This document shows, one piece after another, positions 4,074 through 62,763 of a DNA stretch of 64,000 bases (position 1 is the stretch's first letter; every line of letters starts with the position of its first letter). The position numbers and the translations under genes were made by a program. The notes beneath the pieces are model-generated. The model saw nothing but the letters and a program-made list of their open reading frames with translations, did not search any database and was not told where the DNA came from. Source of the DNA: an uncultured Actinomycetes bacterium (lineage in GTDB: Bacteria; Actinomycetota; UBA4738; HRBIN12); assembly GCA_963704885.1 (NCBI GenBank), contig CAVPIB010000004.1, forward strand, positions 576,001-640,000, written 5' to 3'.

Positions 4074-6772
<2,699 letters not shown>

Positions 6773-7237: not shown

Positions 7238-7306
7238 ATCCCCTCCCCTTGAGACGGCGGACAGGATCTGAGCCTGACACCGCGCTCATCGGGCGCAAGA
7301 GGTGGT

Positions 7307-43540: not shown

Positions 43541-44151
43541 GCTCCTCCCCCCGCGGCCTCAGAACCGGAGGCGGCGGGTCCGTACAGCCCGATCACAAGG
43601 CGCTCGAGCCACGTCTCCAGCTCCCACGCCGTGGCGCGGTAGGCCTCGAACGGCTGGCCCAGCGGATCGGCCACGTCGTCGTCCCGAGATCTCGGCAACG
43701 CGCCGGCTCGGCGGGCCTGGTCGGCCGCCGCTACCCGCGCGGCAAGGGTGGCCGGACCCGCGTGAAGTTCGGGCGCGCGAAGGGTCTCCAACAGCCGGAC
43801 CAGCTCCTTCATGGTGAAGGCTCGGGAGGCGAGCTCGGGTCCCGATCGCGCCAACAGCTCGCGATGGTCCGTCGCCATGCACAGCAGTAGGTCGGCCTGG
43901 CTCGTCACCGGGACGGTGATGCGGCGCGCACGGTGCCCAGCGATGTCGCTCCCCAGCTCGCGGGCCGCCTCCACCCCTTCCGGCGTGGCCTCTGAACCTT
44001 CCAGGCCCATGGTCCCCGCCGAGGAAACCGCAGGCGCCGCGTCCCCGAAACGGGCGCTCAGGGCGGCCCGTAGGAACCCCTCGGCCATCGGCGAGCGGCA
44101 GATGTTGCCCGTACAGACCACGAGGATGGATGTCATTCGCGAGGGCGTCAC
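43537..44151 (-). CDS. Low-molecular-weight protein phosphatase
   Basis: VCTGNICRSPMAE P-loop, DVADP. Confidence 0.88.
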   Translation of the reverse strand: MTPSRMTSILVVCTGNICRSPMAEGFLRAALSARFGDAAPAVSSAGTMGLEGSEATPEGVEAARELGSDIAGHRARRITVPVTSQADLLLCMATDHRELLARSGPELASRAFTMKELVRLLETLRAPELHAGPATLAARVAAADQARRAGALPRSRDDDVADPLGQPFEAYRATAWELETWLERLVIGLYGPAASGSEAAGGGA

Positions 44152-44777
44152 CCTGAAGGGGGCGAGTCTAACAGCGGCACCTCGAGCCCTATGAGCTGCG
44201 CGACCTCAAGCGCATCGACGGCGCCGAGGCGGAGCAGACGCGCGTCGCCGTGGGCCAGGTCGAGCACGGTGGAAGCCACTCCCCGACTCCGGTCATCGAG
44301 ACACAGATACACGGCCACCTGGTCTCCGAAGACGGCCTGGAGTTCGTCGCAGGTCCCCGCCGGTGGCTCTCCCGAGAGGTTGGCGCTCGTCACCGCGAGC
44401 GGCCCCGTGAGCTCGAGCAACGCGAGCGCCAGGGCATGTCTGGGGACACGAACGCCGATCGAGTCGGCATCCGCGCCGAGCCCCCAAGCGCCGGAGGCCT
44501 CCGATCTGGGCAATATCAGCGTGAGCGCCCCCGGCCAGAGCGCCGACGCCACGCGGTCTGCGATGTCGTCGAAACGTGCCACGCCCCGTGCCGCCTCCAC
44601 AGAAGGAACCAGGATCGGCAGGGACAGGCCCCTCGGGCGCCGCTTGGCATCGAAGATCCGTGCCGTTGCGGCCGGATCGTCCGGGCGCGCGGCGAGTCCG
44701 TAGACGGTATCGGTGGGGAGTACGACCAGCTCGCCCTCGCGGAGCGCTTCCGCCGCGTCCACGAGCGCGTGCATCAC
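44148..44777 (-). CDS. tsaC: L-threonylcarbamoyladenylate synthase (Sua5/TsaC)
   Basis: PTDTVYGL, KRRP, WPGALTL, TSANLSG. Confidence 0.93.
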   Translation of the reverse strand: MMHALVDAAEALREGELVVLPTDTVYGLAARPDDPAATARIFDAKRRPRGLSLPILVPSVEAARGVARFDDIADRVASALWPGALTLILPRSEASGAWGLGADADSIGVRVPRHALALALLELTGPLAVTSANLSGEPPAGTCDELQAVFGDQVAVYLCLDDRSRGVASTVLDLAHGDARLLRLGAVDALEVAQLIGLEVPLLDSPPSG

Positions 44778-45607
44778 GGCGTCCGCGCCGTGATCAGGCG
44801 GTCTCGGCCTGTCAGGTCGGGCAGGATCCGAGCAGCGACGAGCCCTGCCGCCTCGGCGATATCACCCACCGCGTCGGCGCTATGCTCCTCGATCTCCGCA
44901 ACCACCGCACCACCCGGTCTGAGAACATGGACCGCGCCCGCGAACAACCGCCGGTAGATCTCGGCCCCCCCCACGAGCGCCAGCTCCGGGTCTCCACGGA
45001 CGTCGCACGGGAGCTCTGGGAGTTCCTCCACATCGATGTAAGGGGGGTTGCTCACCACTAGATCGACGCTGCCTGACATCTCGCTCGGCAACGGCTCGAA
45101 CAGATCGCCTTGCAGCAACCCTATCTCCAGGTGCAGCCTGGTCGCGTTCTCCGCCGCAAGCGCGATCGCCTCCGGAGAGATGTCTATCGCCGTCACCCGG
45201 GCGTCGGAGCGTTCATCCTTCACGGCGAGCGCGATCGCGCCCGTGCCGGTCCCGACGTCGATCACGACCGGTTCCTCGAGGCCCTCGATGGATGCGAGCG
45301 CGTAATCCACGACCACCTCCGTCTCGGGACGAGGGATGAACACACCCGGCCGCACCGCGAGCGTCAGGCGACGGAACGCCTGCTCGCCGGTCAGATGTTG
45401 GAGCGGCGTTCCAACGCATCGCCGGCAGAGCGCGCGACCGAAGCGCCGCGCCTCTGGGCCGGAGAGACCGCGATCCGAAGCGTAGAGCCCGGCGCGATCG
45501 GTTCGCAGCACATGCGCCAGCAACACCTCGGCCTCTACCAGCGGGCTCTCCACGTCGTGACGTTCCAGGTACGCCGCCGCGCGGCGGACGATCTCAGCGG
45601 GACGCAC
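44774..45607 (-). CDS. prmC: Release factor glutamine methyltransferase
   Basis: IPRPETE, DVGTGTGAIA, SNPPY. Confidence 0.95.
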   Translation of the reverse strand: MRPAEIVRRAAAYLERHDVESPLVEAEVLLAHVLRTDRAGLYASDRGLSGPEARRFGRALCRRCVGTPLQHLTGEQAFRRLTLAVRPGVFIPRPETEVVVDYALASIEGLEEPVVIDVGTGTGAIALAVKDERSDARVTAIDISPEAIALAAENATRLHLEIGLLQGDLFEPLPSEMSGSVDLVVSNPPYIDVEELPELPCDVRGDPELALVGGAEIYRRLFAGAVHVLRPGGAVVAEIEEHSADAVGDIAEAAGLVAARILPDLTGRDRLITARTP

Positions 45608-45611
45608 CGGC

Positions 45612-46706
45612 TCAACCCTGCTCGTCGCGGCCCGCCAACTGGTCGGCCCGCTCCGCCGAACGCAGCAGGTCGATGAACCCGTCGAGCTCCTCGCCGCCCG
45701 TGAGCACTTCCTGTAGCTGGTGCGAGGTGTGCTTGATCCGGTGATCGGTCACGCGGCCCTCGGGGAAGTTGTAGGTCCGGATCTTCTCTGCCCGCTCGCC
45801 GGTGCCTACCTGAGAACGGCGGCTGGCGGCCTCCTTCGCCTGAGCCTCGTCCTGCGCCCGCTGGAGCAGCCGCGCGCGGAGGTACCGCATCGCCTTCTCG
45901 CGGTTCTGGAGCTGCGACCTCTCCTCTTGACACTCCACCTTGATGCCCGTCGGCTTGTGCACGATCCGAACCGCGGAGTCCGTCGTGTTCACGGACTGCC
46001 CCCCGGGGCCAGACGAGCGATAGACGTCGATCTGGATGTCCTCGGCCCGGATCTCGATCTCGACCTCCTCGGCCTCGGGGAGGACCGCCACAGTCGCTGT
46101 CGAGGTGTGGATCCTGCCCGCCGACTCCGTGACAGGCACTCGCTGGACCCGATGGACGCCCGACTCGTGCTTCAGGCGGGCGTAGGCGTCCTTGCCTCTG
46201 ACCTCGACGACGGCCTCCTTGAAACCGCCAACCTCCGCCTCAGACGCCGAGAGAACCTCGGTCTTCCAGCGATGCCGCTCCGCCAACCGTCGGTACATCT
46301 CGAAGAGCTCACCTGCCCACAGCGCGGCCTCCTGTCCCCCGGCCCCCGCGCGGATCTCGACGATCACGTCCTTCCCGTCGTTCGGATCCTTCGGCACCAG
46401 CAGCACTTCGAGCTTCCCGCGCAGCTCATCGACCCGTGCTTGCGCGGTCTCAGCCTCATCGCGAAGGAAGGCGGCCATGTCCGCGTCGGGCTCTCTCGAG
46501 GCCATCTCCCGCGCCTCCTCGGCCTGACGCGATGCGTCGATGTACTCGCGATACGGTCGGACGATCTCGTCCAGCTCGGCGAACGACTGCCCGAGGGTCC
46601 GGAACCGATCCTGGTCCGCAGCCACGTTGGGAGCGGCCAGCTCTTGCGAGACGGCTTCGTAGCGAGATTCGATCTCCGCCAGACGTGCATCGAGGGACTC
46701 GGCCAT
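45612..46706 (-). CDS. prfA: Peptide chain release factor 1
   Basis: PVT motif, GPGGQSVNTTDSAVR, RTYNFPEGRVTDHR. Confidence 0.97.
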   Translation of the reverse strand: MAESLDARLAEIESRYEAVSQELAAPNVAADQDRFRTLGQSFAELDEIVRPYREYIDASRQAEEAREMASREPDADMAAFLRDEAETAQARVDELRGKLEVLLVPKDPNDGKDVIVEIRAGAGGQEAALWAGELFEMYRRLAERHRWKTEVLSASEAEVGGFKEAVVEVRGKDAYARLKHESGVHRVQRVPVTESAGRIHTSTATVAVLPEAEEVEIEIRAEDIQIDVYRSSGPGGQSVNTTDSAVRIVHKPTGIKVECQEERSQLQNREKAMRYLRARLLQRAQDEAQAKEAASRRSQVGTGERAEKIRTYNFPEGRVTDHRIKHTSHQLQEVLTGGEELDGFIDLLRSAERADQLAGRDEQG

Positions 46707-46767
46707 GACTGGATTATCCCGGACGCGCCGAGAACCTCACCGGAGAGGCACGAGCGCCGGCGAGCGG

Positions 46768-47535
46768 CTACTCCTCGTCTTCCTCCGACTCGAAGTCGAG
46801 CTCGAGCGGCGGGATGGCCGGCATCTCGATCGCCTCGTCGGAGAGCATGCCCTCCAGGCTGTCGACGGGGTCGCTCGTCTCTTCGTGATCGTCGGCCGCG
46901 GCAGGTGGGTCGGCGGGTGCGGCGGCGACCGCCGTCTCGCGGCTCCGGCCTGTCTCCTTCTTCGTCTCCTTGGCGAGGACGGGCTCGTCGATCGCCACCT
47001 CGAGCTCCTTCGCCACACCGATCAGACGCGACTGCATCTCCTGCAGATGCTGGACCAGGTCCTCCCTGCGTGCCGAGAGCCCGACCAACACGCGATCGGA
47101 CTCCTGTTTGGCCTTCTCCAGCAGCTCGTTGCCCTCCTGCCGCGCCTCCTCGGCTCGCGCCTGGGCGTCCACCCGGATGCGATCGGCTTCGGTTCGGGCC
47201 TCGTTCAGCATGCGGGCGGCGTCGGCCCGAGCCTCGACCAGGATCCCCTCAGCCTCTTGGTCGGCCGTGGCGAGGAGCGTGGTCAGGCGCTTCGAGAGTC
47301 GCTCGTAGGGATCGTCAGAGGGCGGCGGGCCGGGCGGTGCACCGGATGGGCCGCTCGCTCCCTCAGCCAACCTTGCCTCGCGCAGCTGGCTCTCGAGTCC
47401 CTCGACCTGCTCCGCGACCTGCGCCAGATAGTCGCGGACCTGGTCGGGATCGTAGCCTCGACGGACGGACGCGAACTCGCGGCGACGGATCTGTGCGGCG
47501 CTCGGAAGGAACGGTAGATCGATATCGGTGGCCAT
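46768..47535 (-). CDS. DivIVA-domain coiled-coil protein
   Basis: IRRREFASVRRGYDPDQVRDYL followed by a long coiled coil and acidic tail; GGGAGG RBS. Confidence 0.85.
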   Translation of the reverse strand: MATDIDLPFLPSAAQIRRREFASVRRGYDPDQVRDYLAQVAEQVEGLESQLREARLAEGASGPSGAPPGPPPSDDPYERLSKRLTTLLATADQEAEGILVEARADAARMLNEARTEADRIRVDAQARAEEARQEGNELLEKAKQESDRVLVGLSARREDLVQHLQEMQSRLIGVAKELEVAIDEPVLAKETKKETGRSRETAVAAAPADPPAAADDHEETSDPVDSLEGMLSDEAIEMPAIPPLELDFESEEDEE

Positions 47536-47633
47536 CGGACAACCTCCCGGGGTCGTCGGGTAACGACCCATCTTCAAGGGGCCGATCCCAAGATGCAACG
47601 ACCCTAAGTCGGGAGTATCGGCAGGTCAGGGCG

Positions 47634-48536
47634 TCAGCTGGAGGACTCAGCGGCCTCGGCCTCACGGCGCAAGACCTCGGAGAACGAGCTGATCGCCACC
47701 TGGATCTGCCCCTTATCGGGCGGCTGGGTCGTGATCCGCTGAAGCCACAGACCGGGAGCCATCAACACGCGCATGCCCCCGGAGGACTCGAACCGGGCTC
47801 CCAGACGCAGGGCCTCGTAGGCCAGGCCCGCGATCAAAGGGATGGCCAGGATCCGGGACCCGATCCGCCACCAGATCCCCGGTGTTCCGAACAGCGTGAA
47901 GACGAAGATCGTGATGATCATGACGATGATCAGGAAGTTCGTGCCGCAGCGAACGTGCACGGTGGAGTACCGATCCACGTTGTCGGGGTCCAGCGTCTCG
48001 CCGTGCTCGTAGGCGGCGATGGTCTTGTGCTCGGCGCCGTGGTACTCGAACACCCGGTGGATGTCCTTCGTCCGACCTATCAGCCACAGGTAACCCACGA
48101 AGAGCGCCACACGGAACAAGCCCTCGAGGATGTTAGTGAGCAAGCCGGCTCCCACCTCCCGATGGACCCACGCGAAGAGCACGGTCGGGCCCAGGATGAA
48201 GACGCCCACGAAGAGGACCATCGCGAAAGCTAGGGCCAATCCCACCTGGCGGGACGTCAGTTGCTCGTCCTCCTCCATGGATTGGTTGGTGGCGATCAGC
48301 AGCGCGCGGGTGCCTATCGCGAGCGACTGACCCAGCACGATGATCCCGCGGAGGAAGGGCTTGGCCAGGAGCGGGTGACGCTTGGCTATCGAATCGATGG
48401 AGTGGGATTCGACGTAGATGTCACCGGCGGGCTTCCGAACCGCGACAGCCCAGTGGTGGGCGCCACGCATCATGACGCCTTCGACCACGGCCTGTCCGCC
48501 GTAGAGATGCGCCGACGCCGGAGAGCGTTCGGTCAC
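47634..48536 (-). CDS. DUF1385 domain membrane protein
   Basis: GGQAVVEGVMM, YHGAEHK, HVRCGTNF, PGLWLQRITT. Confidence 0.9.
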   Translation of the reverse strand: MTERSPASAHLYGGQAVVEGVMMRGAHHWAVAVRKPAGDIYVESHSIDSIAKRHPLLAKPFLRGIIVLGQSLAIGTRALLIATNQSMEEDEQLTSRQVGLALAFAMVLFVGVFILGPTVLFAWVHREVGAGLLTNILEGLFRVALFVGYLWLIGRTKDIHRVFEYHGAEHKTIAAYEHGETLDPDNVDRYSTVHVRCGTNFLIIVMIITIFVFTLFGTPGIWWRIGSRILAIPLIAGLAYEALRLGARFESSGGMRVLMAPGLWLQRITTQPPDKGQIQVAISSFSEVLRREAEAAESSS

Positions 48537-48552
48537 GATGCCGTGCGGGCGA

Positions 48553-48771
48553 TCAGCTGGACGAACCCGGCTGGGTCTTGGCGTACCGCCGCTGGAACCG
48601 CTCGACGCGGCCGCCCGCGTCCATGAGCTTCTGCTTGCCCGTGTAGAACGGGTGGCAGTTCGAGCAGATGTCCGAGCGGATCTCGCTCACCGTGGAGCGC
48701 GTCTGGAACGTGTTGCCGCACGAGCAGTGCACGTTCGCGATCTGGTATTCGGGATGGATGCCTTGCTTCAT
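48553..48771 (-). CDS. rpmE: 50S ribosomal protein L31 (Zn-binding type)
   Basis: [20 protein letters not shown]. Confidence 0.97.
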
Positions 48772-48802
48772 GCTCTCGTCTCCTCTCGGGCGGCCCAGCC
48801 TA

Positions 48803-50507
48803 CTAGTTGCCGGACGGCGCCTTCGCGATCTCCTTCAGGAACTGCTCGTTCGACTTGGTCGCGCGGATCTTGTCCGTCAGGAGCTCCAACGCCGCGCCCG
48901 GCTCCAGCGCGTGTAGCACGCGGCGGAGCTTGACGACGAGTGCCAATTCTTCGGGCGGCATGAGGAGCTCCTCCTTGCGGGTGCCCGAGGCGTCGACGTT
49001 GATGGCCGGGAACAACCGCTTCTCCGCTAGTGAACGATCCAAACGAAGCTCCATGTTCCCGGTGCCCTTGAACTCCTCGAAGATGACCTCGTCCATGCGG
49101 GAACCGGTCTCAACGAGCGCGCTCGCGATGATGGTGAGCGACCCGCCCTCCTCGATGTTCCGCGCCGCCCCGAAGAACCGCTTCGGCGGGTAGAGCGCGG
49201 TGGAGTCCACGCCACCGGACAAGATCTTGCCGGAAGCCGGTGCGGCCAGGTTGTAGGCGCGAGCTAGGCGCGTCACCGAGTCGAGGAGGATAGCGACGTC
49301 CTGGCCCATCTCGGCGAGACGGCGGGAACGTTCCAGCACGAGCTCAGTCACCTGGATGTGCTGGTCGGCCGGCTTGTCGAACGTGGAGTACACGACCTCG
49401 GCCGCCTCAACGGTCCTCTGCCAGTCCGTGACCTCCTCGGGCCGCTCGTCGACCAGAAGGACGATCACGTGCGTATCGGGGCTCGACGCGATGATGCCGT
49501 TCGCGATCTGCTTGAGGATGGTCGTCTTGCCGGCCTTCGGTGGCGACACCACCATCCCCCGCTGACCCTTCCCGATAGGTGCGACCATATCGATGATCCG
49601 CTGCGCCACCTCGAGCGGACCACCTTCCAGCCGGAACCGCTCGTCGGGGAACAACGGCGTTAGCTTGTCGAAGTTCGGGCGGGCGCGGGCCGCCTCGACG
49701 TCGAGGCCGTTAACCGAGTCCAGGTCGAGCAGAGCGAAGTACTTCTCGCTGTCCTTCGGCCGGCGCACCTTGCCGGCCACCGTGTCACCCTTGCGGAGTG
49801 CGAACCGCCGAACCTGCGACAGGGAAACATAGATGTCCTCGGGCCCGGGCAGATACCCGGACGTTCGAAGGAACCCATAGCCCTCGGGAAGGATGTCCAG
49901 CAGACCGGTCAGGACCGGCGCGTTCTGCATCTCCTCCGCCCGCTCCTGTTCCTCGCGGACCCTTCGCTCCTCTCGCGAGCGGCGTCGATCCTCACGCGAA
50001 GGGCGCGGACGTCGATCGCGACCGTCCTGGGTTCGGTCGCCCTGGGTTCGGTCGCCCTGGGTTCGGTCGCCCTGGGTTCGGTCGCCCTGGGTTCGGTCGC
50101 CCTGGGGCCGATCGCCTGGGTTCGGTCGCCTGGGGCCGATCGCCCTGCGTTCGGTCGCCTTGGGGACGATCCACCTGCGACCGCTGATCGCGAGGACGAT
50201 CCTCGCTGGGACCTCGCTCGCGAGGGCGATCCTGCTGAGATCCTTCGTCTTGGCCCTCACCGGATCGGTCCGTTCGAACCTCACCGTTCATCACCTCGGC
50301 GCCCTCGTCGTCGGACGGACTCGCCACGGGCTCGGTCGGCGCGCGTGCGGCCGGTGTTTCATCAGAACCGGAGCCCGACACGATCGCGTCGATCAGGCCG
50401 GCCTTGCGCAGCTTCTGGGCACCTTCGATGCCCAAGCTCTGCGCGATCTGCTGCAATTCGGGGATCAGTTTCCCCTCCAGGACGCTGCGGTCAATCGTCG
50501 TATCCAT
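48803..50507 (-). CDS. rho: Transcription termination factor Rho (two apparent 1-nt deletions near 50116 and 50130)
   Basis: N-domain [14 protein letters not shown]...[10 protein letters not shown] in ORF 49992..50507; [14 protein letters not shown] and FKGTGNME in ORF 48803..50284. Confidence 0.96.
50026..50170. repeat. 15-bp tandem repeat in the rho N-terminal insertion, encoding QGDR(T/P)
   Basis: Five perfect CCTGGGTTCGGTCGC copies at 50026-50100 plus about five degenerate copies. Confidence 0.95.
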
Positions 50508-50511
50508 GAGG

Positions 50512-51174
50512 CTATGCCTCTCCCTTCAACTCGTTCTGAAGCTTGGTCCAGTCGGCCTGGAACTTCTCCAGACCGAGGTCGGTGAGTGGGTGCTTCACCA
50601 GCTTGGTGAAGACGTCGTAGGGCATCGTGGCGATATCGGCGCCTGCGAGCGCCGCATCGATCACGTGCATCGGGTGGCGGAGCGACGCCGCCAATACGTT
50701 CGTCTGGTAGCCCTGCATCTGATAGACCTCGCAGATCTGCCGGAGCAAGAACATGCCGTCGCTCCCCACATCGTCGAGACGGCCGAGGAACGGGGAGACG
50801 ATGTACGCGCCGATCTCGGCCGCGAGGATCGCCTGCGCCGGTGAGAACACCAGCGTGACGTTGATCCGGATACCTTCATCGGTCAGCCGCTTCCCGCACT
50901 GAAGCCCGTCCGGAGTCATCGGCACCTTCACGACGACGTTCGACGCCTTCAGTGAAAGCCGGACGCCCTCCTCGTACATGGCGTCTGCCTGCGGCTGGGT
51001 GGTCTCGAGCGAGATGTCGCCGTCGACCTCGTCCAGGATCAGCTTCCATACCGCGTCTGGGTCCTCGTTCTCCCTCGCCACGAGCGACGGGTTCGTGGTG
51101 ACACCCTTCAAGACGCCCCAACGGTTGATCTCGCGGATCTCCTCGATGCTCGCGGTGTCGAGGAACAACCTCAT
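50512..51174 (-). CDS. tal: Transaldolase/fructose-6-phosphate aldolase family (short type)
   Basis: FLDTA, GVTTNPSL, VVVKVP, NVTLVFS, SPFLGRLDD, HPLTD. Confidence 0.92.
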   Translation of the reverse strand: MRLFLDTASIEEIREINRWGVLKGVTTNPSLVARENEDPDAVWKLILDEVDGDISLETTQPQADAMYEEGVRLSLKASNVVVKVPMTPDGLQCGKRLTDEGIRINVTLVFSPAQAILAAEIGAYIVSPFLGRLDDVGSDGMFLLRQICEVYQMQGYQTNVLAASLRHPMHVIDAALAGADIATMPYDVFTKLVKHPLTDLGLEKFQADWTKLQNELKGEA

Positions 51175-52133
51175 GTCGTCTGTCCTTTCAGTACGGGCTC
51201 GGCGCCGGCGGCCTCCTCGACCGCACGCGCCGTGGTGCGTTCCATGACCAGGTCGATAACAGCGGCGATCGACTGGTCGAATCCGTAGTTGGGGATGATC
51301 GGCACGTCGTGCGCGAGTGCCTGGCTCTTCACATAGGACTGGAGTCGCCGGATGTTGTCGAAGCCCTTCGCGTAGCGCCGCGCCGGCCGAGCGGCTATCG
51401 CATCCTCACGTGCCCCGAAATGGGAGCGATGGCGCTCCACATCGTCCACGGAGATGACGAACGGTACCGCCAGGATCCTGCCGGCGAACGCCTTCAGGTC
51501 GAAGAACCCCGGCACCACGTGCGCGCCTTCGATGATGATGCTGGTCCCCTCCAGGGCGGCACGTTCGATCAGGGCGTTGATCCCGACCGCGACGGCAGCC
51601 GTCTGCTCGCGGAAACCCACGATCAACGGATCGGCCGAACGCGTGGGGGGCTCGCGGAGCGCGACGTCGGCCTCGAAGGACGAGGTATGCAGCGTGGGCA
51701 TCAACTCCGGAGAGAACATCGAGCGCATGACCTCGCGGATGGCATCGGTAGCCACGAAGCGCACGATCCCAAGTCGGGCGGCCAGCTGTGTAGCGATCGT
51801 TGACTTGCCGACCCCGGTGGCACCGCCTATCAGGATCACGATCGGGACATCCAGCTTCTCGACCTCGCGCCAGCGAAGGAAGTTCTTCGCATAGCGATCG
51901 CCCGCGAGGTGAGTCAGCACTTCGAGCGCCAGCTCGGCGAGCTCGTCCGTGGTGAGGGAGGTGGAACCACGCTCACGCAGTCGATCTTCGATCTCCTCGG
52001 CCACCTGGTAGGCCCTGAACGGCGAGAGGCCGGTGACCATGACTTGCGAAGCCATGAGCCCCTTGGAGTACGGCAGCCCAGGCTCGCGATCCGAGATCAC
52101 GATGTGAGGGGTCTTGCTTCCCTTCTCTGTCAC
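51171..52133 (-). CDS. pgk2: 2-phosphoglycerate kinase (ATP-cone plus P-loop)
   Basis: PYSKGLMA...AYQVAEEI ATP-cone, ILIGGATGVGKSTIA, TDAIREVMR, LHTSSF, IIEGAHVVP, HRSHF. Confidence 0.85.
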   Translation of the reverse strand: MTEKGSKTPHIVISDREPGLPYSKGLMASQVMVTGLSPFRAYQVAEEIEDRLRERGSTSLTTDELAELALEVLTHLAGDRYAKNFLRWREVEKLDVPIVILIGGATGVGKSTIATQLAARLGIVRFVATDAIREVMRSMFSPELMPTLHTSSFEADVALREPPTRSADPLIVGFREQTAAVAVGINALIERAALEGTSIIIEGAHVVPGFFDLKAFAGRILAVPFVISVDDVERHRSHFGAREDAIAARPARRYAKGFDNIRRLQSYVKSQALAHDVPIIPNYGFDQSIAAVIDLVMERTTARAVEEAAGAEPVLKGQTT

Positions 52134-52137
52134 GCCT

Positions 52138-53472
52138 CTACCTCGTTCGTTGACGTTCCAAGGCCTGGTCGATGACCCCGCCCAGCGCCGTGTCGAGGTC
52201 CATCTCGCCCTCGACCACGATCGCTCGGTTGTCCACGAACACGATCTCCGCCCCTCGAGCAAGAGCCCGCTCGCACGCCACGTCGACGGCGGCAGCCTTC
52301 AACTCGGTGAGGAGGACGTCGAACGCCTCGGCTCCCTCCATGTCCTCCGCCAGTCCGGCCCGATCGGCCAGCCTGGTGCTCCAACCCACGACGGTGCATC
52401 CGTTGGCGGCCTCGAGGTGAGCTGCCTGCCTCGATGCCACCTCGGCTGGCGCCGTGGTGGTTAGGAACACCCGCTCACCCTTCACGTCTGCCAGCGGTAC
52501 CGGGATGAAGTCGGTAAGGATCTGCCGCGGATCATCGAGGAAGCGGCGGACGTGAGAGCGAAGTGCGGAGAGATTCTCGTGCCCAGCGACTGGGCCGGTA
52601 GCCATGGTAACAACGACAAGGTCCGACAACAAGAGCCTGAAGGGACCAAGATATCCGCCCAGATACTCCGGCGGAGCATCCGCTGGCACGACCAGCACGC
52701 CTGCGTCCCACGGGATCGGGGGTACGGACGCGCCGCTTCCTTCCAGGATCACAAGATCGGCCCCCTCGGCGGCCACCGCGACCTGCGCCGCTTCGCGGAC
52801 GTTCGTGGCGAACGGGGCGCCCGCCAGGCCACCGCCCACCCGGCGCGCCCCGACGGTTGTCACCCCTGTCGTAAGCGCGTCCTCCAGGTAGTCAGACGCC
52901 GCGTGCTCTCCCTTGCGGACCCGCTCGAGCAGGTCGGCGAGATCCACTGAGCCGGCGGGCGCAACCTGAGGTTCCGCGGGGCCTCCGCGTCCCATGGCCA
53001 CGACGACGGGAGTGAACCCGCGCCGCGCGGCCGTCCTGGCCAGCTCGCCGGCGATCGCCGTCTTGCCGGTTCGCTTGCCCGTTCCGATCACTGCGATGGT
53101 TGGAAGCACGAGCGGCGGTCCCGTGATGGGTGGGTCCAACCGGAAGTCGGCTCCCAGATACGGCAGGCCCCGGACGAGCGCCACCGCCACCAGCTCCATC
53201 CGCTCTCGGTAACCAAGGACGGGTTCGTCCGACAGATCCAGAACCGCGTCAGGTCCGAACTCGTCGATCGCGTCGGCAAGCGCCGCCATCCGGTCGTCGC
53301 CCACCACTCGGGTGGGGACTCCGAGGTCCGGCACCGCCGTCGGGTCGATCTTCTCCGTGCCCCCCACGAACAACGCGCCGACGACGTCGTGACCTCGCTC
53401 GCGCGCAACCTCGATCCCCCACCGGGTAACAGGCGGGTAGTGCTCGCCGTCGACCAGGACGATCACCCGCAT
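52138..53472 (-). CDS. cpgS: Cyclic 2,3-diphosphoglycerate synthetase
   Basis: LVDGEHYPPV, GGTEK, DLSDEPV, GTGKRTGKTA, AMGRGGP, HAASDYLEDA, EGSG, LTELKAAAVD. Confidence 0.88.
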   Translation of the reverse strand: MRVIVLVDGEHYPPVTRWGIEVARERGHDVVGALFVGGTEKIDPTAVPDLGVPTRVVGDDRMAALADAIDEFGPDAVLDLSDEPVLGYRERMELVAVALVRGLPYLGADFRLDPPITGPPLVLPTIAVIGTGKRTGKTAIAGELARTAARRGFTPVVVAMGRGGPAEPQVAPAGSVDLADLLERVRKGEHAASDYLEDALTTGVTTVGARRVGGGLAGAPFATNVREAAQVAVAAEGADLVILEGSGASVPPIPWDAGVLVVPADAPPEYLGGYLGPFRLLLSDLVVVTMATGPVAGHENLSALRSHVRRFLDDPRQILTDFIPVPLADVKGERVFLTTTAPAEVASRQAAHLEAANGCTVVGWSTRLADRAGLAEDMEGAEAFDVLLTELKAAAVDVACERALARGAEIVFVDNRAIVVEGEMDLDTALGGVIDQALERQRTR

Positions 53473-53528
53473 AGGATGAAAGAGACCTCCTCTCGGATCG
53501 TGGATGGAGCCGGTTGAACCGCCCTCGC

Positions 53529-54318
53529 CTAATCGCCGACAGGCGCGACGCGCTCCTGCACTGGGAGCTCGTGCTCCCGGTGGACGGGCCCGCCCGACAG
53601 CGAGAACCGCGCCATCACCTGCCCATCGCCGAACGGGAACTTCCGGTGGATCGTTACTTCGTCCCCGTCGAACTCGAGCACGTTGTAGCAGGGCTTGGTG
53701 TAGCCGCGCACCCGCAGGGAAGAGACCGTTCCGGCGTTCGCGACATACATGTCCTCCAGGCGCCAGACGTAAGGGACGTGCTTGTGACCTGATAGCACGA
53801 CCTGCACACCCGCGTGGATGAGGACCTCCAACAGGTCGCCTGCGTCCATGACCGTGCTCCGCTCGCGCCCGGTTCCGGGGATGGGCAGCAGATGATGGTG
53901 GAGCACGAACACCCTCAGTTCCGCAGGTTGCAGGAACTCGCGGGAGATCCACTCGTAGCGGCCCCGGCCGATCCTGCCCTCGTTCTGATCCGGCTCTGAG
54001 GAGTCCATGCCGACCACGCGGATGCCGTCGATGTCTACCGACCAGCTCCGCGGGCCGATCAGGTCCTCGAAGTGGAGGTAGCCCACGTTGCGGGAGTCGT
54101 GGTTCCCGGGAACCGTGTACAGCGGGAGCCTCGATCCGGTCCGCATAGGCCACCCAGCTCTTGTACTCCTGACGGAAGCCTTCGCTGGTGAGGTCGCCGC
54201 TCACGACGACCGCGTCGGGCTTCAGCTCGTTCACCTCTGAGATGACGCGGTTCATCAGGTTCGGGACGAAGTACGGCGAGCCGACGTGCGGATCGGAGAT
54301 ATGGGCGATCGTGACCAC
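53529..54318 (-). CDS. Calcineurin-like metallophosphoesterase (frameshift near 54125)
   Basis: ISDPH, SGDLT, PGNHD, LHHH and SGHKH motifs split over two frames. Confidence 0.88.
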
Positions 54319-54345
54319 GATGTCTTCAGTGTAAGGGTCGGTGTC

Positions 54346-55200
54346 TCAGCCCTGGGTGATCTCGACCCCGGCGGGGGCCACGGCGAGCCTGAGGACGCTC
54401 CACCCATCACCGGGATCGGGAACAGTCGTGTCGTCCGATTCGAAGGCGAGCAGCGTAGGCCCGGCGCCCGAGAGGCAGACGGGCACGCCGGCCGCTCGCA
54501 GATCCATGAACACGCCCTCGACCGTTGGAACTAGAGCCAGGCGAACGTCCTGGTGCAGCCGATCGCGGAGCGTCTGCGTGAGCAACCCGGGCTCCGACGT
54601 GAGCGCCACCACGGTAGCCGCCGCGTGAGCCGAGTTGAACACCGCATCGGAGCGTGCGATCGGATCCCCCAGCGCGGCGCGCGCCTCGACCGTCGCGAGC
54701 CGGACGTCGGGTATCAAGGCCACCGGTCGGAGCGATGGATGCGCATCCAGGCGGATCACACCGTCTCCGAACGCGATCGTGAATCCACCGGCGATCGCCG
54801 CGGCCGCGTTGTCGGGATGGCCCTCCATCTCCACGGCGAGATCCAGGATCTCCTCAGGCTCCAGCCCCAGATCGAGCAATCGGTCGGCCAGGGAGATGCC
54901 CGCCACGCACGCGGCCGCCGACGAGCCGAGGCCGCGTTCGAGCGGGATGCGATTCACGCCGTGGAGCGCGACGGACGGGATCGGCGCCCCCCCGGCGCGC
55001 GCCGCGTGGGCGAGCGCCCTGCTCACCATGTCCGTGCCGTCCGAGGAGAGCTCGTCGGCACCCTCGCCCTCCCAGGTCACACCCGGTTCGGCTTCGGTGT
55101 CGAGGGTCACGTCGTTCCACAGGTCGAGGGCCAGGCCGAAGCAATCGAAGCCGGGTCCGAGGTTCGCGGAGGTCGCAGGGACCCGGGCGGTCAACCTCAC
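54346..55200 (-). CDS. thrB: Homoserine kinase
   Basis: VPATSANLGPGFD, IPLERGLGSSAA, EGHPDN, LSGAGPT. Confidence 0.96.
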   Translation of the reverse strand: MRLTARVPATSANLGPGFDCFGLALDLWNDVTLDTEAEPGVTWEGEGADELSSDGTDMVSRALAHAARAGGAPIPSVALHGVNRIPLERGLGSSAAACVAGISLADRLLDLGLEPEEILDLAVEMEGHPDNAAAAIAGGFTIAFGDGVIRLDAHPSLRPVALIPDVRLATVEARAALGDPIARSDAVFNSAHAAATVVALTSEPGLLTQTLRDRLHQDVRLALVPTVEGVFMDLRAAGVPVCLSGAGPTLLAFESDDTTVPDPGDGWSVLRLAVAPAGVEITQG

Positions 55201-55204
55201 GGCA

Positions 55205-56293
55205 TCAGAGTCCGAGCTCGGCGGCCACGGCCGTGGGATCCGTCGGCACCACGGCGGGGTGCGCCGCACCGGCGATCGCCCACTCCGGGTCCTTCAGACC
55301 GTGGCCGGTGAGCACGCACACGACCGTCGCGCCCTTGGGGAGCACGCCGTCGGCGTGCAGATGCAAGAGGCCAGCGATGCTCGCTGCGCTCGCCGGTTCT
55401 GCGAACAGCCCCTCCCTCGCGACGCGCCGATAGGCGGCCAGGATCTCGCGGTCGGTCACCGCCAGGATCTGCCCCTCCGACTCCGTCGCGGCCGCGACGG
55501 CCTTGTCCCACGACGCCGGGTTCCCGATCCGTATCGCTGTCGCGATCGTCTGCGGATCCTTCACCGGCGCGCCTTCCACGATCGGAGCTGCCCCTTTCGC
55601 TTGGAACCCGAAGAGCTGTGGCGGCTCGGCTATCAGTCCGTCCGCCAGGTACTCCGAATAGCCGAGCCAGTGGCTGGAGATATTGCCGGCGTTCCCGACG
55701 GGCACGCAATGGATGTCGGGCGCGCGTCCGAGCGCGTCACAGATCTCGAACGCGGCGGTCTTCTGTCCCTGCAGCCGGAACGGATTCACGGAGTTCACGA
55801 GCGTGACCGGATAGCGGTCCGCCATCTCCTGCGCCAGCTCGAGCGCCGCGTCGAAGTTGCCCTCCACCTCCAAGACCCGAGCGCCGTGCACGAGCGTCTG
55901 AGCCATCTTCCCGAGGGCGATCTTGCCCTTCGGCACCAAGACGGCGCATGTGATCCCGGCCTTGGCGGCGTACGCGGCGGCGCTCGCGGACGTGTTGCCC
56001 GTGGACGCACAGACCACGGCCTTGGCGCCCTCCTCCATCGCCTTGCTGATCGCGAGCGTCATCCCGCGATCCTTGAACGAGCCCGTGGGGTTGGCGCCGT
56101 CGTACTTCAGCCACACATCGCAGCCGGTCTCTTCTGACAACGGCTCCGAGCGGACTAGCGGCGTGCCGCCCTCGCGCAGCGTGATCACAGGTGTGTCGTC
56201 GGACACGGGGAGACGAGAGCGGTACTCCTCGATCAGGCCTCGCCACTGATGAGCGCCGCCACTAGTCTGATGCAGACTAGTGGCCTCAGACAT
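55205..56293 (-). CDS. thrC: Threonine synthase
   Basis: [33 protein letters not shown]. Confidence 0.96.
56258..56284. repeat. Perfect 12-bp inverted repeat in the 5' end of thrC
   Basis: GCCACTAGTCTG-ATG-CAGACTAGTGGC. Confidence 0.9.
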
Positions 56294-56307
56294 GCCGTCG
56301 CCGACAC

Positions 56308-57597
56308 TCACTCCTCACCCTCCACCCGCAGGACACTCGCCACCGCCCGCACGGCCGGGAGATCTCGGAGCTCCGCCAGGGTCTTCTGGAAGGCTCCCTC
56401 CTGCGCGCGATGCGTGATGAACACCAACGTGGCTTCGTCGGCGAACCCCTCCTGCCACACTCGTTCGATGGACACGTCGTTGTGTGCGAAGTGCTCCGCC
56501 ACCTCGGCGAGAACACCAGGTCTGTCCTCCACGTGCAGGTTCAGGTAGTACTGCCCGCGGGTGTCGTCCATGGGGCGTATCCGGCGCTCGTAGACGCAGG
56601 TGCAGCCGATCCCTCTGGTACCGGCGACGCGGTTGCGAGCGGCGTTCGCCAGATCGCCCACCACAGCGGTGGCGGTAGGATCGCCGCCCGCCCCCTTGCC
56701 GTAGAACATGAGCTGCCCGACCTTCTGGCCCTCAAGGAACACGGCGTTGTACGCATCGCTCACCGATGCCAGCGGATGGGTGACGGGCACCATGGCGGGA
56801 TGCACTCGAGCTGAGACCTCCCCATCCTCCAGCTCGGCGATCGCCAGGAGTTTCACCGCATACCCGAGACGCTTCGCGTCGGCGATGTCCTGCGCCTGGA
56901 TCCCCGTTATGCCCTCGCGGTAGACGTCGCCGGCGACGACTCGAGTATTGAAGACGATCGAGGCCAAGATGGCGCACTTGGCGGCGGCATCGAACCCCTC
57001 GACGTCGGCTGTCGGGTCCGCCTCCGCATAGCCCAGCCGTTGCGCCTCCGCAAGCGCGTCTTGGAACGACCATCCGTGCTCGGACATCTGCGTAAGGATG
57101 TAGTTGGTCGTTCCGTTCACGATCCCGAGGAGCCGGGATACGCGCTCCCCCACAAGGGATTCCTTGAGCGGACGGATCAACGGGATGCCGCCCGCGACCG
57201 CGGCTTCGAACGACAGGTCTACCCCGGCGGCGTCGGCCGCGTCGAACAGTTCCTTGCCGGAGTTCGCCAGGAGTTCCTTGTTCGCGGTGACGACGGCCTT
57301 GCCACGCTCGAAGGCTCGCATGATCAGCGAGCGCGCCGGCTCCATACCGCCGAGCAGTTCGCAGACGATGTCGATCTCGGGGTCGTCGATGATCGAGACG
57401 CCATCGACGGTGAAGACCCCAGCGGGAAGCGGGACACCGCGATCGCGCTCGAGATCGCGGACCGCCACCCGAGTCACCTCCAGGCGGCAGCCGGTCCGAA
57501 GCGCGATGTCGTCGCCGTGCTCATGCACCATGCGGACCACGGCGGCCCCGACGGTGCCGCAGCCGAGGAGGCCGACACGCACGGTCTGCTCGGTCAT
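56308..57597 (-). CDS. hom: Homoserine dehydrogenase with ACT domain
   Basis: [48 protein letters not shown]. Confidence 0.96.
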
Positions 57598-59462
57598 GCT
57601 CCTCGATCCTCTCCGATCCACACCGACATCAAGATCTCGTCCTCGTAGCCGGAGGACTTCCGGGAGTGTCCCATGAGCCGTCCTTCCTCCACGAACCCGA
57701 AGCGCCGATATAACGCGATCGCCGCGTGGTTGTGCGGGTACACCGAGAGCATGATCTTCTCGACGCCCACGCTGCGCGCCCATCGCAACGCCTCGCCCAT
57801 CAGCGCCGCGCCTATACCGCGGCCTCGATGATCGGCCGCCACGGCGATCCCCAGCGTCGCGACGTGCCGCGTCACTGGATGGACCTCCCGTTGGACGAAC
57901 ACGTGGCCGACCACGCGCCCGCCGTCGAGCCCTACCACCTGCGCTTCGCGATCGGTCCAGGAGGCGCGGAATCGCGTCCGATACACCCGTGCGGGTGTGT
58001 TGGCCTCCTCCGTCCTGACGTAGCCGCCCTCGGCGACGATCTCACGCCAGAACGACTGGAACGGGCGGGCGTCGCGAGAACGCGCGGGCCTGAACACGAT
58101 CCCGTCCGGCTTCGCCGGAGGCTCATGCCGGGCCGAGGTCGCCTCCAGCCGATCGAGGTCTCCCGCGTCCTCGCGCCTGAGCCAAAGCGTGGGTCGGGCG
58201 TCTTCGACCGCGACCACCGCGGGCCGGCCTATACGGTTGTAGGCGCTGGCCAGCGGATACGTGTAGGCGCCCGTCGCCGCGAACGCGAGCAGGTCACCCG
58301 GCTGCACGTCGCCCGGGAGCGCCACGGCTTCGGCAAGCACGTCGCCGGATTCGCAATGGCGTCCCACGATGGTGAGATCCCTCTCGTCGGCCGCGCTCGC
58401 CCGGTTGGCGAGCGCCACGGTGTACCGCGCGTCGTAGAGCATGGGGCGGATGTTGTCCGACATCCCCCCGTCCACGGCGATCGCCGTACGGCCGTCGCCC
58501 AACACCCTGCGATCGCCCACCCGGTAGAGCGTGACACCTGCGTTGCCCACGATGCTCCTACCCGGCTCCGCGGCCACTTGCGGAACAGGGAGGCCGAGAT
58601 CGGAGCACCGGCGCATGATCCGCTCCATGACCGCCTCCGCCGTAGCCCCCACGCCGGGGATGCGCTCGTCGGTGTAGGTGATGCCGAAACCGCCGCCGAT
58701 ATCCACCAGCTCGGTATCGAGGCCGTGACGCCGACGGAGGTCGGCGGCCAGTGCGATCAGCACATCCACCTCCTGTAGGAACGGACCGACGTCCGGCACC
58801 TGCGAACCGATGTGAGCATGCAGGCCCACGAAACGGACGTGCGGGAGATCGGCGACCCGCGCTGCCGCCTCCCGAACCTCGAAGGTGGATGCTCCGAAGG
58901 CGGTCGCCTCGTGCCCGGTGGCGATGGACTCGTGAGTGTCGACGCCTACACCCGGGTTCACACGAAGGATGAAGGGCTGCACGACGCCAGCCGCAGCCGC
59001 GACGCGATCGAGGCGCAAGAGTTCGTCCAGGCCATCCGCGATCAGCGTTCCGATCCCCGATCGGACGGCGAGCTCCAACTCCTCGTCGGTCTTGTTCCGG
59101 CCGTGCAGGGCGATACGGGCGGCTGGCACACCTGCACGCAGGCACGCCTCCACTTCGCCGCCGCTCGCGGCCAGCAGGTCGAGCCCCTCGTCGGAAGCCA
59201 GGCGCAGGATCGCATGAGAGGTGAACGCCTTGACGGCATAGAACGTGCGAGGAAAGGCGAGGCGCGCGGCCCGGAGCCTGGAGACCAGGTCCGCCCGGTC
59301 GAACACGAGGAGCGGGGTCCCGTACCTGCCGGCCAGCTCGTCGGCCGGCAGGCCGCCGATCCACAGCCCCTGGGTGTCGAACGTCGCGTTGGCTGACCAA
59401 GGCGTCGGGAGTGCCGGCCGACGGAGCGGAGATCGCCGTCGCCGAAGGGGCCGCGGGCTCAA
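57594..59462 (-). CDS. lysA: Diaminopimelate decarboxylase fused to a C-terminal GNAT acetyltransferase
   Basis: YAVKA, HAHIGSQ, DIGGGFG, EPGRS, HCESGD, then LGIAVAADHRGRGIG...NHAAIALYRRFGF in the same frame. Confidence 0.9.
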   Translation of the reverse strand: MSPRPLRRRRSPLRRPALPTPWSANATFDTQGLWIGGLPADELAGRYGTPLLVFDRADLVSRLRAARLAFPRTFYAVKAFTSHAILRLASDEGLDLLAASGGEVEACLRAGVPAARIALHGRNKTDEELELAVRSGIGTLIADGLDELLRLDRVAAAAGVVQPFILRVNPGVGVDTHESIATGHEATAFGASTFEVREAAARVADLPHVRFVGLHAHIGSQVPDVGPFLQEVDVLIALAADLRRRHGLDTELVDIGGGFGITYTDERIPGVGATAEAVMERIMRRCSDLGLPVPQVAAEPGRSIVGNAGVTLYRVGDRRVLGDGRTAIAVDGGMSDNIRPMLYDARYTVALANRASAADERDLTIVGRHCESGDVLAEAVALPGDVQPGDLLAFAATGAYTYPLASAYNRIGRPAVVAVEDARPTLWLRREDAGDLDRLEATSARHEPPAKPDGIVFRPARSRDARPFQSFWREIVAEGGYVRTEEANTPARVYRTRFRASWTDREAQVVGLDGGRVVGHVFVQREVHPVTRHVATLGIAVAADHRGRGIGAALMGEALRWARSVGVEKIMLSVYPHNHAAIALYRRFGFVEEGRLMGHSRKSSGYEDEILMSVWIGEDRGA

Positions 59463-61133
59463 CCATCGTCGCGCTCCATCGAGTCGGGGGCTGAGACGCC
59501 GAGCAGGCCGAGGAGGTTCGCCAGGATCTGCTTCGTGCCGGCGCAGAGCCAAAGACGTGCCTGGGTAAGCCCTTCGTCGTCGGATACGACGCGACACTCG
59601 CTGTAGAAGCGGTGGAACCTGGCGGCCAGGCTCTGGGACGCGTGCGTGAGCCGGTGGGGTCCGCGCTGCTCGGCCGCGAGCATCAGCTGGCCGGGTACGT
59701 CGGCGAGCGCGCGGAGCAGATCGAGTTCGGCCGGGTGTGCGAGCAGGCTCAGGTCTACGTCGGCGAGCGGCTTCAGCGCGAGACCCTGAGCCTCGGCTCT
59801 GCGCAGGATCGACGCGATCCGCGCGTGCCCGTACTGCACGTAGTAGACCGGGTTCTCCATGGTCTGCTGCTTCACCAGCTCGATGTCGAAGTTGAGCGCG
59901 GAGTCGTTCGAGTACTGGAGCAGGGTGAAGCGAGCCGCATCGGTGCCCACCTCGTCGATCAGCTGATCCAGCGTTATGAACTCGCCGGCGCGCGTGCTCA
60001 TCTTCACCGGCTCGCCGTCACGTAGGAACGCCACGAACTGATAGAGAACGATCTCGACGCTCGCCGGATCGAAGCCGAGTGCCTGCGCGGCGCCCTTCAC
60101 TCGGGCCACCGTGCCGAAATGATCTGCGCCCCAGACATAGATCACGTGGTCGAACCCGCGCGAGAACTTGTCGACGAGGTACGCGCAATCCGCACCGAAG
60201 TACGTGTGCACTCCGTTCGAGCGGACCACCACGCGGTCCTTGTCATCCCCGTAGTCCGTCGACCTGAACCATTCGGCGCCCTCGGCCTCGTATACATATC
60301 CGGCGTCGCGCAGGCGTCGGATGGCCTCTTGGATCTCGCCCGCGTCGGCCAGGTCGCGTTCGGACCGGTAGACATCGAAGAGGACTCCGAACCGCTCGAG
60401 CGTGGCCTTGATCCCCTCGAGGATGCGAGCGGCTCCTTCATCGCGCAGCCGTCGCCAACCGCTCGGCCTCGGGTAGGTCGGCCAGGCCAGCGCCCTCGGT
60501 CCGCAAGATGTCGCGCGCGATGTCTGAGATGTAGTCCCCGCGGTAGCCGTCCTCCGGGAACTCCGCATCGCGGCCGAGCTCCTGGAGGAACCGCGCCTGG
60601 ACCGATGCACCGAACCGGTCCATCTGTCCCCCGGCGTCGTTGAAGTAGTACTCGCGTTCTACCGTCCATCCGGCATGTTCCAGGAGCCGCGCGAGCGCGT
60701 CGCCGATCGCCGCGTTTCGCGCGTGGCCGATGGTGAGGGGTCCCGTCGGGTTGGAGCTCACGAACTCGACCTGCATGCGCCTGCCGTTGGGCGCGGCGCG
60801 GCCGTAGGCCGCGCCGCGGGCCACAACCTCACGCATGGCTTCGTGAAGCCAAGCGTTCGTCAAGAAGAAGTTCAGGAACCCCGGACCGGCGATCTCGACC
60901 CGCTCCAGGAATGGCGCCTCGGGAAGCGCGGCCAGGACGGCCTCCGCGACATCTCGCGGCTGGCGGCTCGCCCGCGCGGCCATGGCGAGAGCCACGTTCG
61001 AAGAGAAGTCGCCGTGGACCTTCTGTTTGGGAACCGATAGCTCTGGCCGCGGCAGCTCGCCCTCGATCCCCAGGCCGGGAGCAGCCGCCTCGAGCGCGGA
61101 GCGGATCAGCTCGAGGAGCTGCTCCTCGATCAC
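59459..61133 (-). CDS. argS: Arginine--tRNA ligase (frameshift near 60452)
   Basis: HGDFSSN, EFVSSNPTGPLTIGHAR, WGADH, KMSTRAG, NPVYYVQYGHAR across two frames. Confidence 0.95.
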
Positions 61134-61541
61134 CGTGCCTCGCGTTCTCCGACCCGCCGGCGTACCAGGGCGACCAGATCGACCGGCTCGAATGGTTTGG
61201 CGATGAAGTCGATCTCACCCAGATCGTGGGCCTCGGCCTGCTGATCCTCGGGTGACCGAGCCGTGAGGAACACGACCGGGACATCTCTTGAGGTTCGGGA
61301 TCGCCCGCATCTGGCGTGCCACCTCGAACCCACCGAGACCCGGCAGCATCACATCGAGCACGATCGCATCGGGCGGGACGGCGCGCGCGCGCTCAAGGGC
61401 CGCATCCCCCCGAGATGCGATCCCCACCTTGAATCCGTCGAGGCGGAAGTTCACCTCCAGCAACCGAGTGATCACCGGGTCGTCATCGACCAGGAGGACG
61501 ACGGGAGGGCGCTCCTCGGACGGTTCGTTCGCTTCCGACAT
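61130..61541 (-). CDS. Single-domain response regulator (frameshift near 61289)
   Basis: VLLVDDD, LDVMLP, VFLTA and IAKPF split over two frames; stop overlaps the argS start. Confidence 0.85.
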
Positions 61542-61623
61542 ACCGGGAGGATAGCTGCACGAGCGCCGCGGGCCGTGAGGAGGGGGCGCGACCACCGGTA
61601 GACTCGGTGACCGGGCGACCCGC

Positions 61624-61695
<72 letters not shown>

Positions 61696-61904
61696 CCGAT
61701 CCATATACGGGGGTCCAAGAAGCGGTGTGCGGAAGAGGGGCTGGATGTGGCCAGGCCCCCTCGAGCACCGACGAGGACAGGTTCGACCGGATCTGCCAGA
61801 TGCGCGATGAAAGGGTGGTTGCGCGAAGAACGCTTTGACCGTCCGGCGCTAATGGCCGAGTATGCAAACGCTTGACGGGCGATCCGGTTACGTAGCATCT
61901 GTCG

Positions 61905-62531: not shown

Positions 62532-62594
62532 CTCGCTGGGAACCAGGACGCTCCCAGTGCGCTCGAGCGGACTCCACTCCTTCCACCGAGCGTC

Positions 62595-62738: not shown

Positions 62739-62763
62739 CTTGTTGTGAAATGCTGAGGGCACC

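Follow-up and report, generated by a model that had tools for sequence, protein, structure and literature searches.

Does a row of four genes between thrB and rho in an uncultured member of the Actinomycetes encode the route to cyclic 2,3-diphosphoglycerate (cDPG), for which the characterised enzymes are archaeal, and is this row a settled part of the chromosome? The question is raised by a 64,000-nt stretch of genome assembly GCA_963704885.1 (contig CAVPIB010000004.1, positions 576,001 to 640,000), hereafter the window. A preliminary description of this DNA had proposed adjacent genes for cDPG synthetase (cpgS) and 2-phosphoglycerate kinase (2PGK), with a gene for a phosphoesterase, here called the metallophosphoesterase (MPE), before them and a transaldolase gene behind them. 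All four genes were found between thrB and rho at the positions it gave, on the minus strand (Table 1). In the known pathway, the kinase converts 2-phosphoglycerate and ATP to 2,3-diphosphoglycerate (2,3-DPG), and CpgS converts 2,3-DPG and ATP to cDPG, ADP and phosphate, as described in PMC1224877 and PMC10690619. Judging by homology and gene linkage, the kinase and CpgS of the window probably carry out the same two steps. The kinase would phosphorylate 2-phosphoglycerate with ATP, and CpgS would use a second ATP, joining the two phosphates into a cyclic pyrophosphate by the mechanism proposed for the enzyme of Methanothermus fervidus. Moreover, the cassette is a native, vertically inherited operon of long standing, and it occurs widely among uncultured Actinomycetota.

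CpgS and its conserved residues

The cpgS call was borne out by comparison with the solved archaeal enzyme, of which the product is a full-length relative with the catalytic residues in place. With 444 residues it is similar in length to the M. fervidus CpgS (about 460 residues; 8ORK and 8ORU, PMC10690619), and it matched both PDB entries with a phmmer E-value of 3e-96, its residues 2-439 lying on chain residues 5-453. A third PDB entry named cyclic 2,3-diphosphoglycerate synthetase, 9SXB, was matched with an E-value of 7e-93. The alignment takes in the family-specific N-terminal domain (about 127 residues) as well as the P-loop core, and the Walker A motif GTGKRxGKT is identical in the M. fervidus and window proteins, while the identity of the window CpgS to its archaeal relatives (Methanobrevibacter loci) was about 39-40%. 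In addition, database relatives of CpgS bear the precomputed tag PF27272.1. The setting differs from that of M. fervidus: the DNA belongs to a soil bacterium of high G+C content that is probably mesophilic, and cpgS shares an operon with the gene of the kinase presumed to be its partner, a pairing seen in none of the seven archaeal loci considered below.

To place these features among relatives, cpgS loci were searched in one genome per prokaryotic species with a query alignment of 13 sequences, and at least 529 cpgS places were confirmed. The counts of linkage, motifs, residues and tree rows given here rest on the best 80 of these at least 529 loci (73 bacterial and seven archaeal). According to PMC10690619, the contacts to 2,3-DPG, Mg and ATP/ADP in the M. 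fervidus CpgS are made by E45, K46, K145, R146, K149, T150, D208, E305, T353, E404 and K406, E45 and K46 being contributed to the 2,3-DPG site by the other subunit. The window CpgS shares ten of these 11 named residues, all but E305, and the same ten were invariant in all 66 bacterial and all seven archaeal sequences compared (the window and 72 locus-encoded relatives). P335, also named in that paper, was by our count not matched by a proline in the phmmer alignment and was left out of the residue set. With these residues in place, the window protein may be considered as good an orthologue of CpgS as sequence alone can show.

The 2-phosphoglycerate kinase homologue

The preliminary description had named the second gene of the pair a 2-phosphoglycerate kinase; its best family match was indeed 2PGK, but the curated equivalog cut-off was not reached. 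The product of 320 residues matched NCBIfam NF003259 with an E-value of 2e-87 over profile positions 5-299 of 306, and its score was 293.5 bits where 343 are required. Its two best NCBIfam matches were both 2PGK models (2e-87 and 1.3e-85), followed by a model named ‘hypothetical protein’ (140 bits) and by mevalonate-3-phosphate 5-kinase (73 bits), so that the margin in favour of 2PGK was about 150 bits. With the archaeal 2PGK (NF003259 / PRK04220) it shares nearly the whole profile, the P-loop kinase domain (AAA_33, 27.8 bits) and a weak ATP-cone-like N-terminal part (23.5 bits, cut-off 25.8). Relatives of 320 residues were 94% identical across 100% of the length, and no solved structure was found among the kinase relatives. 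A 2PGK-like function is therefore likely, and the protein would be the expected partner of CpgS, formally below the threshold of strict family membership. The preliminary description had also suggested confirming both enzymes by profile searches: the 2PGK profile was matched below its curated cut-off, while for CpgS the Pfam and NCBIfam copies scanned gave no match to a CpgS model, and it was assigned through the solved structures.

Relatives and conservation of the gene order

At least 7972 CpgS relatives were found among 8000 candidates scored in the protein database; at 50% clustering there were 1035 clusters (E-value ≤1e-3) or 245 clusters (E-value ≤1e-30). The top 120 were 71-94% identical to the window CpgS, the closest one being 94% identical over 100% of the length. 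Where a name was given, it was cyclic 2,3-diphosphoglycerate synthetase or 2,3-diphosphoglycerate synthetase, and several of the named entries stem from metagenome-assembled genomes (MAGs) of Actinomycetota. For the kinase, 4270 database relatives were found, many with the JGI name 2-phosphoglycerate kinase and with mixed NCBI names. Furthermore, some cultured Streptomyces strains carry a CpgS homologue of 451 residues (e.g. WP_125510701.1), the cluster representative of which is about 48-49% identical to the window CpgS and which NCBI names 2,3-diphosphoglycerate synthetase or hypothetical protein.

The 73 bacterial loci came almost entirely from uncultured Actinomycetota in soil or groundwater assemblies, with CpgS identities of 45-82% and with labels including Actinomycetes, Acidimicrobiia, Nitriliruptoria, Coriobacteriia, Aquicultoria and Geothermincolia. 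The seven archaeal loci (L063, L072, L074-L076, L078 and L079) belonged to Methanobrevibacter and related MAGs, including gut Methanobrevibacter; these archaea are not known to be hyperthermophiles. When the window proteins were placed on the loci by tblastn, the kinase was found directly after cpgS in 68 of the 70 bacterial loci with enough sequence, and in the two misses (L043 and L054) the cpgS match was split, with the kinase following at its usual place. Rho followed within 3.5 kb downstream in 53/54 loci, and the aldolase gene lay next to the kinase, downstream, in 56/63. On the other side, MPE was directly upstream of cpgS in 53 of 66 bacterial loci (one miss, L049, being a split-match artefact), and thrB or thrC was present within 8 kb upstream in 43/47, with thrB directly abutting MPE as in the window in only three of these 47. 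The conserved core is thus cpgS and the kinase just upstream of rho, with MPE and the aldolase gene as frequent companions.

Some loci hold other genes at this junction. Inserts of two to five kb separate thrB from MPE or cpgS in L003 (1959-7066), L014 (3604-7261) and L032 (1107-3377), each holding a glycosidase like glycogen-debranching enzymes and mannosylglycerate hydrolases; those of L003 and L014 also encode a CvpA-trypsin fusion, and that of L003 an HD-domain protein. This glycosidase family is tied to another glycerate-based solute and here stands beside cDPG genes, which may deserve attention. In three loci of the Acidimicrobiia type (L062, 6732-7886; L077, 6750-7994; L056, within 5253-7934), an ApgM-type gene was found between thrC and cpgS, with no thrB match. 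It scored 438.6 (L062) and 432.9 bits (L077) as cofactor-independent phosphoglycerate mutase, and 431.9 and 419.3 bits, respectively, as ‘proposed homoserine kinase’. A mutase at this place would supply 2-phosphoglycerate, but with the near-equal score and the location in the slot of the missing thrB, the role of the gene is ambiguous and it was not counted as evidence on the substrate. Finally, L069, labelled Burkholderiales, shows the actinobacterial order lysA-hom-thrC ... cpgS-kinase, and its CpgS groups with those of Actinomycetota (support 97); this contig is probably mis-binned.

A conserved promoter-like motif and the probable extent of the transcript

The genes of the cassette are tightly packed. 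The spacer between thrB and MPE is 27 nt long and contains no Shine-Dalgarno sequence, whereas the 56-nt spacer between MPE and cpgS carries a GAGGAGG ribosome-binding site ahead of the cpgS ATG. Only 4 nt separate cpgS from the kinase gene, and the kinase stop overlaps the aldolase start as ATGA, in line with the preliminary description of a coupled transaldolase. Another 4 nt lie between the aldolase gene, the last of the cassette, and rho, so that the cassette transcript appears to feed rho.

The TACACT element that had been proposed as the -10 box of the phosphoesterase gene is present in the thrB-MPE spacer and is phylogenetically conserved. A TANNNT motif was found 6-11 nt before the orthologous MPE start in 47 of the 54 loci with enough upstream sequence, and TA[CG]ACT at that place in 43 of the 54, the commonest distance to the start being 6 nt (18 loci) and the bases around the motif not being conserved. 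The same test was positive at one of 75 cpgS starts, one of 58 aldolase starts and none of 53 rho starts, and at random positions TANNNT occurred in 332/16000 cases (about 2%) and TA[CG]ACT in 10/16000. Leaderless promoters of actinobacteria have a TANNNT -10 element near the start codon and lack a Shine-Dalgarno sequence. We infer that TACACT drives a transcript that is leaderless, or nearly so, and has MPE as its first gene. Transcription would start at the conserved TA(C/G)ACT a few bases before the MPE start codon, and the messenger would run through MPE, cpgS, the kinase and the aldolase genes and probably on into rho, as the gene spacing suggests.

The phosphoesterase and the aldolase

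The two pieces in which the MPE gene is read (see below) matched the Pfam family Metallophos (PF00149) with 29.5 and 34.6 bits (cut-off 21.5), and the intact orthologue of locus L002 reached 78.9 bits. Taken together, the two frames retain every metal-binding motif (DPH, GD, GNHD and GHKH). The nearest solved relatives were Rv0805, a GpdQ-type phosphohydrolase and Icc (E-values from 5e-13 to 1e-12), and no specific (equivalog) family model was passed. MPE shares the calcineurin-type fold and all the metal-binding motifs with the group of class III cyclic-nucleotide phosphodiesterases and GpdQ, to which it is only distantly similar, and we know of no characterised enzyme of the Rv0805/Icc/GpdQ group with a counterpart to its fixed first place in the cpgS operon. 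From position and enzyme class, it may be guessed that MPE provides a return path by hydrolysing cDPG or 2,3-DPG, a role that would be comparable to a hydrolase activity of Methanothermobacter described in PMC1224877.

The last gene of the cassette, called a transaldolase in the preliminary description, is more precisely of the short transaldolase type, passing the fructose-6-phosphate aldolase (FSA)/TalC model TIGR00875 (263.1 bits, cut-off 245.95) and matching Pfam TAL_FSA with an E-value of 1.2e-56. This enzyme of pentose-phosphate or triose metabolism travels with the set.

Frame breaks, composition and phylogeny of the cassette

Although the positions of the genes had been given correctly, frame breaks in MPE and rho had been missed. 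Judged against the intact orthologues in L001, L002 and L006, three genes were found to be interrupted. The MPE frame is split in two by one extra nucleotide near 54127, without a counterpart in any of the six aligned relatives; its downstream part stays open and is 86% identical to that of L002. The rho frame changes between about 50113 and 50145, within a 15-nt tandem array (50026-50164, 9.4 copies) in the N-terminal insertion of the gene, where two units are 14 nt long and where a pentapeptide repeat is encoded, which is GDRTQ in one of the two broken frames and RPNPG in the other. The argS frame changes near 60450-60475. A possible fourth break at 47591-47761 was seen against L002 only, and not against L001 or L006, and was not counted. 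Since rho and argS are presumably indispensable and the downstream parts are open and conserved, the three breaks are most likely indel errors of a (long-read) assembly, and the genes are most likely not pseudogenes.

The preliminary description had seen no signs of mobility and a native composition. In agreement with this, the G+C content was 0.63-0.69 across the cassette and 0.64-0.71 in its flanks, no repeats bound the cassette in a repeat search (only short chance-level pairs and the rho tandem array were found), and no integrase or transposase was present among the window open reading frames (ORFs) scanned. The long residence it had suggested is well supported, as the position is kept across deep divergence, even where CpgS identity falls to 45%. 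A quick maximum-likelihood tree of CpgS comprised 73 rows, the window and 72 of the 80 loci; seven loci with fewer than 400 aligned residues were dropped, as was L042 because of an in-frame stop. The window fell within a clade of 48 rows from soil Actinomycetota (support 100), and the seven archaeal rows formed one clade (support 100) adjoining anaerobic Actinomycetota (Aquicultor and Coriobacteriia-type rows; SH-aLRT 99). The comparison with archaeal enzymes that had been suggested thus sets these apart as a separate clade but gives no direction for any transfer; being unrooted, limited to one archaeal family and flagged for compositional bias, the tree names no donor.

Alternative explanations

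A number of findings weigh against a bacterial cDPG route. In the literature searched (with subscription journals and supplements outside its scope), no bacterial study of cDPG or of its synthetase and no assayed bacterial enzyme was found, which agrees with the earlier statement that the route is barely characterised in bacteria, and the abstract of PMC10690619 (2023) states that cDPG is exclusive to hyperthermophilic methanogens. At the position of the named ATP-contact residue E305 of M. fervidus, the window CpgS has T, in a variable column that shows E in 18 of 66 bacterial sequences. Neither the Pfam nor the NCBIfam copy scanned yielded a CpgS model match that would allow a test against a curated threshold, the only match being a weak one to the P-loop family DUF1611. 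The kinase scores under its equivalog cut-off, within a wider family that includes kinases acting on other substrates. Furthermore, the kinase, MPE, the aldolase and rho were not found near cpgS in any of the seven archaeal loci (phmmer E-value ≤0.01; two of the loci being short), and the bacterial linkage reflects the retention of a single ancient gene order and not repeated independent association. To these are added the split MPE frame and the simple consensus scans for sigma-70 promoters and intrinsic terminators, which gave no sites in 48500-55500. Several of these points would also be expected if the same folds served another chemistry, with a different bis-phosphate or cyclic pyrophosphate, or 2,3-DPG only, as the product instead of cDPG; 2,3-DPG might for example act as a primer for cofactor-dependent phosphoglycerate mutase, or the enzymes might have drifted to another phosphorylated acid or polyol. 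Such a shift would suit the sub-threshold kinase, whose family holds mevalonate-3-phosphate 5-kinase and an unnamed model and offers no solved structure for comparing substrate residues, as well as its absence from beside cpgS in the archaeal loci and the mesophilic soil hosts, in which a thermoprotectant is not expected. Nevertheless, we consider it unlikely, because the ten CpgS residues for substrate, Mg and phosphoryl transfer, including E45 and K46 acting in trans between subunits, are invariant in bacteria and archaea, the two best kinase profiles are both 2PGK with their wide margin, and the strict cpgS-kinase adjacency (68/70) fits two consecutive steps.

The extra nucleotide that MPE shows against all six aligned relatives might alternatively mark a lost function, the cassette then being a decaying remnant and the operon unused. 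Yet rho and argS show similar breaks within 11 kb, the rho break lies inside a tandem array whose two 14-nt units fit assembly indels, the downstream part of MPE is open and conserved, and cpgS, the kinase and the aldolase genes are intact and of full length, which makes decay very improbable. A recent horizontal transfer of the cassette out of a methanogen, or the insertion of a mobile island beside rho, could be suspected from the archaeal source of the characterised enzymes and from the place of the Methanobacteria clade beside anaerobic Actinomycetota in the quick tree. Against this, position and order are common to the six class labels from Actinomycetes to Geothermincolia, the composition is flat, flanking repeats and (among the ORFs scanned) integrases or transposases were not found, and the window CpgS is just 39-40% identical to those of archaea; the tree itself, unrooted, flagged for compositional bias and with Methanobacteriaceae-type archaea only, points to no donor. 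A recent import is accordingly the least credible of these explanations and can hardly be upheld. An old, vertically inherited operon that probably makes cDPG is thus the preferred reading of the locus.

Role and significance

With respect to the role of the product, a review and PMC4302986 describe cDPG in Methanothermobacter as a major carbon- and phosphorus-containing solute, a possible potassium counter-ion and a store. Since the relatives were assembled from soil and groundwater, a function as anionic solute, potassium counter-ion or phosphate/carbon store would be likelier here than heat protection, this being the least certain part of the proposal.

As annotation the pair is not new, since it is already named in thousands of database entries and Streptomyces homologues exist. 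As biology, the bacterial cDPG genes appear to be untouched. They have a conserved operon form, with MPE first and rho last, which the archaeal genes lack. Moreover, intact orthologues with the key residues are present in at least 529 places (one genome per species); the abstract of PMC10690619 gives hyperthermophilic methanogens as the exclusive range of cDPG. The synthetase has been used as a marker of a hot lifestyle in work on archaeal evolution (PMC7554672), and the biotechnological production of cDPG with the archaeal enzyme has been pursued (PMC12136491, 2025). If the bacterial enzymes make cDPG, the known range and the presumed role of the compound would change, the gene would no longer be a heat marker, and mesophilic enzymes would be at hand for such production. 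If the product is a different one, there is a novel small metabolite bearing phosphate to be discovered. In either case, the cultured Streptomyces with the homologue make a test of the product simple.

A bolder and distinctly speculative extension may be put forward, whose chances we rate as low. Far from being peculiar to hot methanogens, cDPG might belong to the normal metabolism of much of the Actinomycetota, in lineages that are for the most part uncultured. The operon would have stood between thrB and rho already in an early ancestor and would later have been lost from most cultured, well-studied lineages. MPE would then be a cDPG hydrolase, and a cycle of synthesis and breakdown, its transcription physically tied to that of rho, would buffer phosphate, carbon or potassium.

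Gene row and neighbouring features

The characterisation of the site as an actinobacterial core locus holds, as the row argS-lysA-hom-thrC-thrB ... rho-prfA-prmC-atp was identified by family scans. Beyond the genes of Table 1, argS lies on one side, and on the rho side there are genes for a DUF1385 protein, a DivIVA-like protein, prfA, prmC, a Sua5-type gene, rpiB, glyA, a GT4 transferase gene, ATP synthase genes and murA. We take Mycobacterium tuberculosis to have the row argS-lysA-hom-thrC-thrB-rho-rpmE-prfA, an order presumably typical of actinobacteria. The genes flanking the cassette match this presumed thrB-rho junction in order and orientation, while the window has four additional genes between thrB and rho.

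Table 1. Features of the window around the thrB-rho junction (positions are those of the window).
Feature	Position	Strand	Remarks
lysA-GNAT fusion	57594-59597	minus	
hom	56308-57783	minus	
thrC	55205-56311	minus	
thrB (homoserine kinase)	54346-55269	minus	upstream border of the cassette; TIGR00191 204.7 bits, cut-off 168.25
TACACT, -10-like element	54328-54333	minus	9 nt before the MPE GTG, inside the 27-nt thrB-MPE spacer
MPE (metallophosphoesterase, calcineurin-type)	53529-54318	minus	first gene of the cassette; GTG start
cpgS	52138-53472	minus	444 aa, intact; ATG start
2PGK homologue	51171-52133	minus	320 aa; GTG start at 52133
FSA/TalC-type aldolase (short transaldolase)	50512-51174	minus	220 aa
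rho	48803-50507	minus	TIGR00767 599.5 bits, cut-off 509; Rho_N on the upstream piece

An Rfam scan of 44000-64000 returned a tRNA-Arg at 61624 and no other element. Upstream in the row, lysA (diaminopimelate decarboxylase) is joined in one ORF with a C-terminal GNAT acetyltransferase domain, and this fusion seems to be kept in close relatives, the tblastn matches in L001 and L006 spanning about 600-630 residues.

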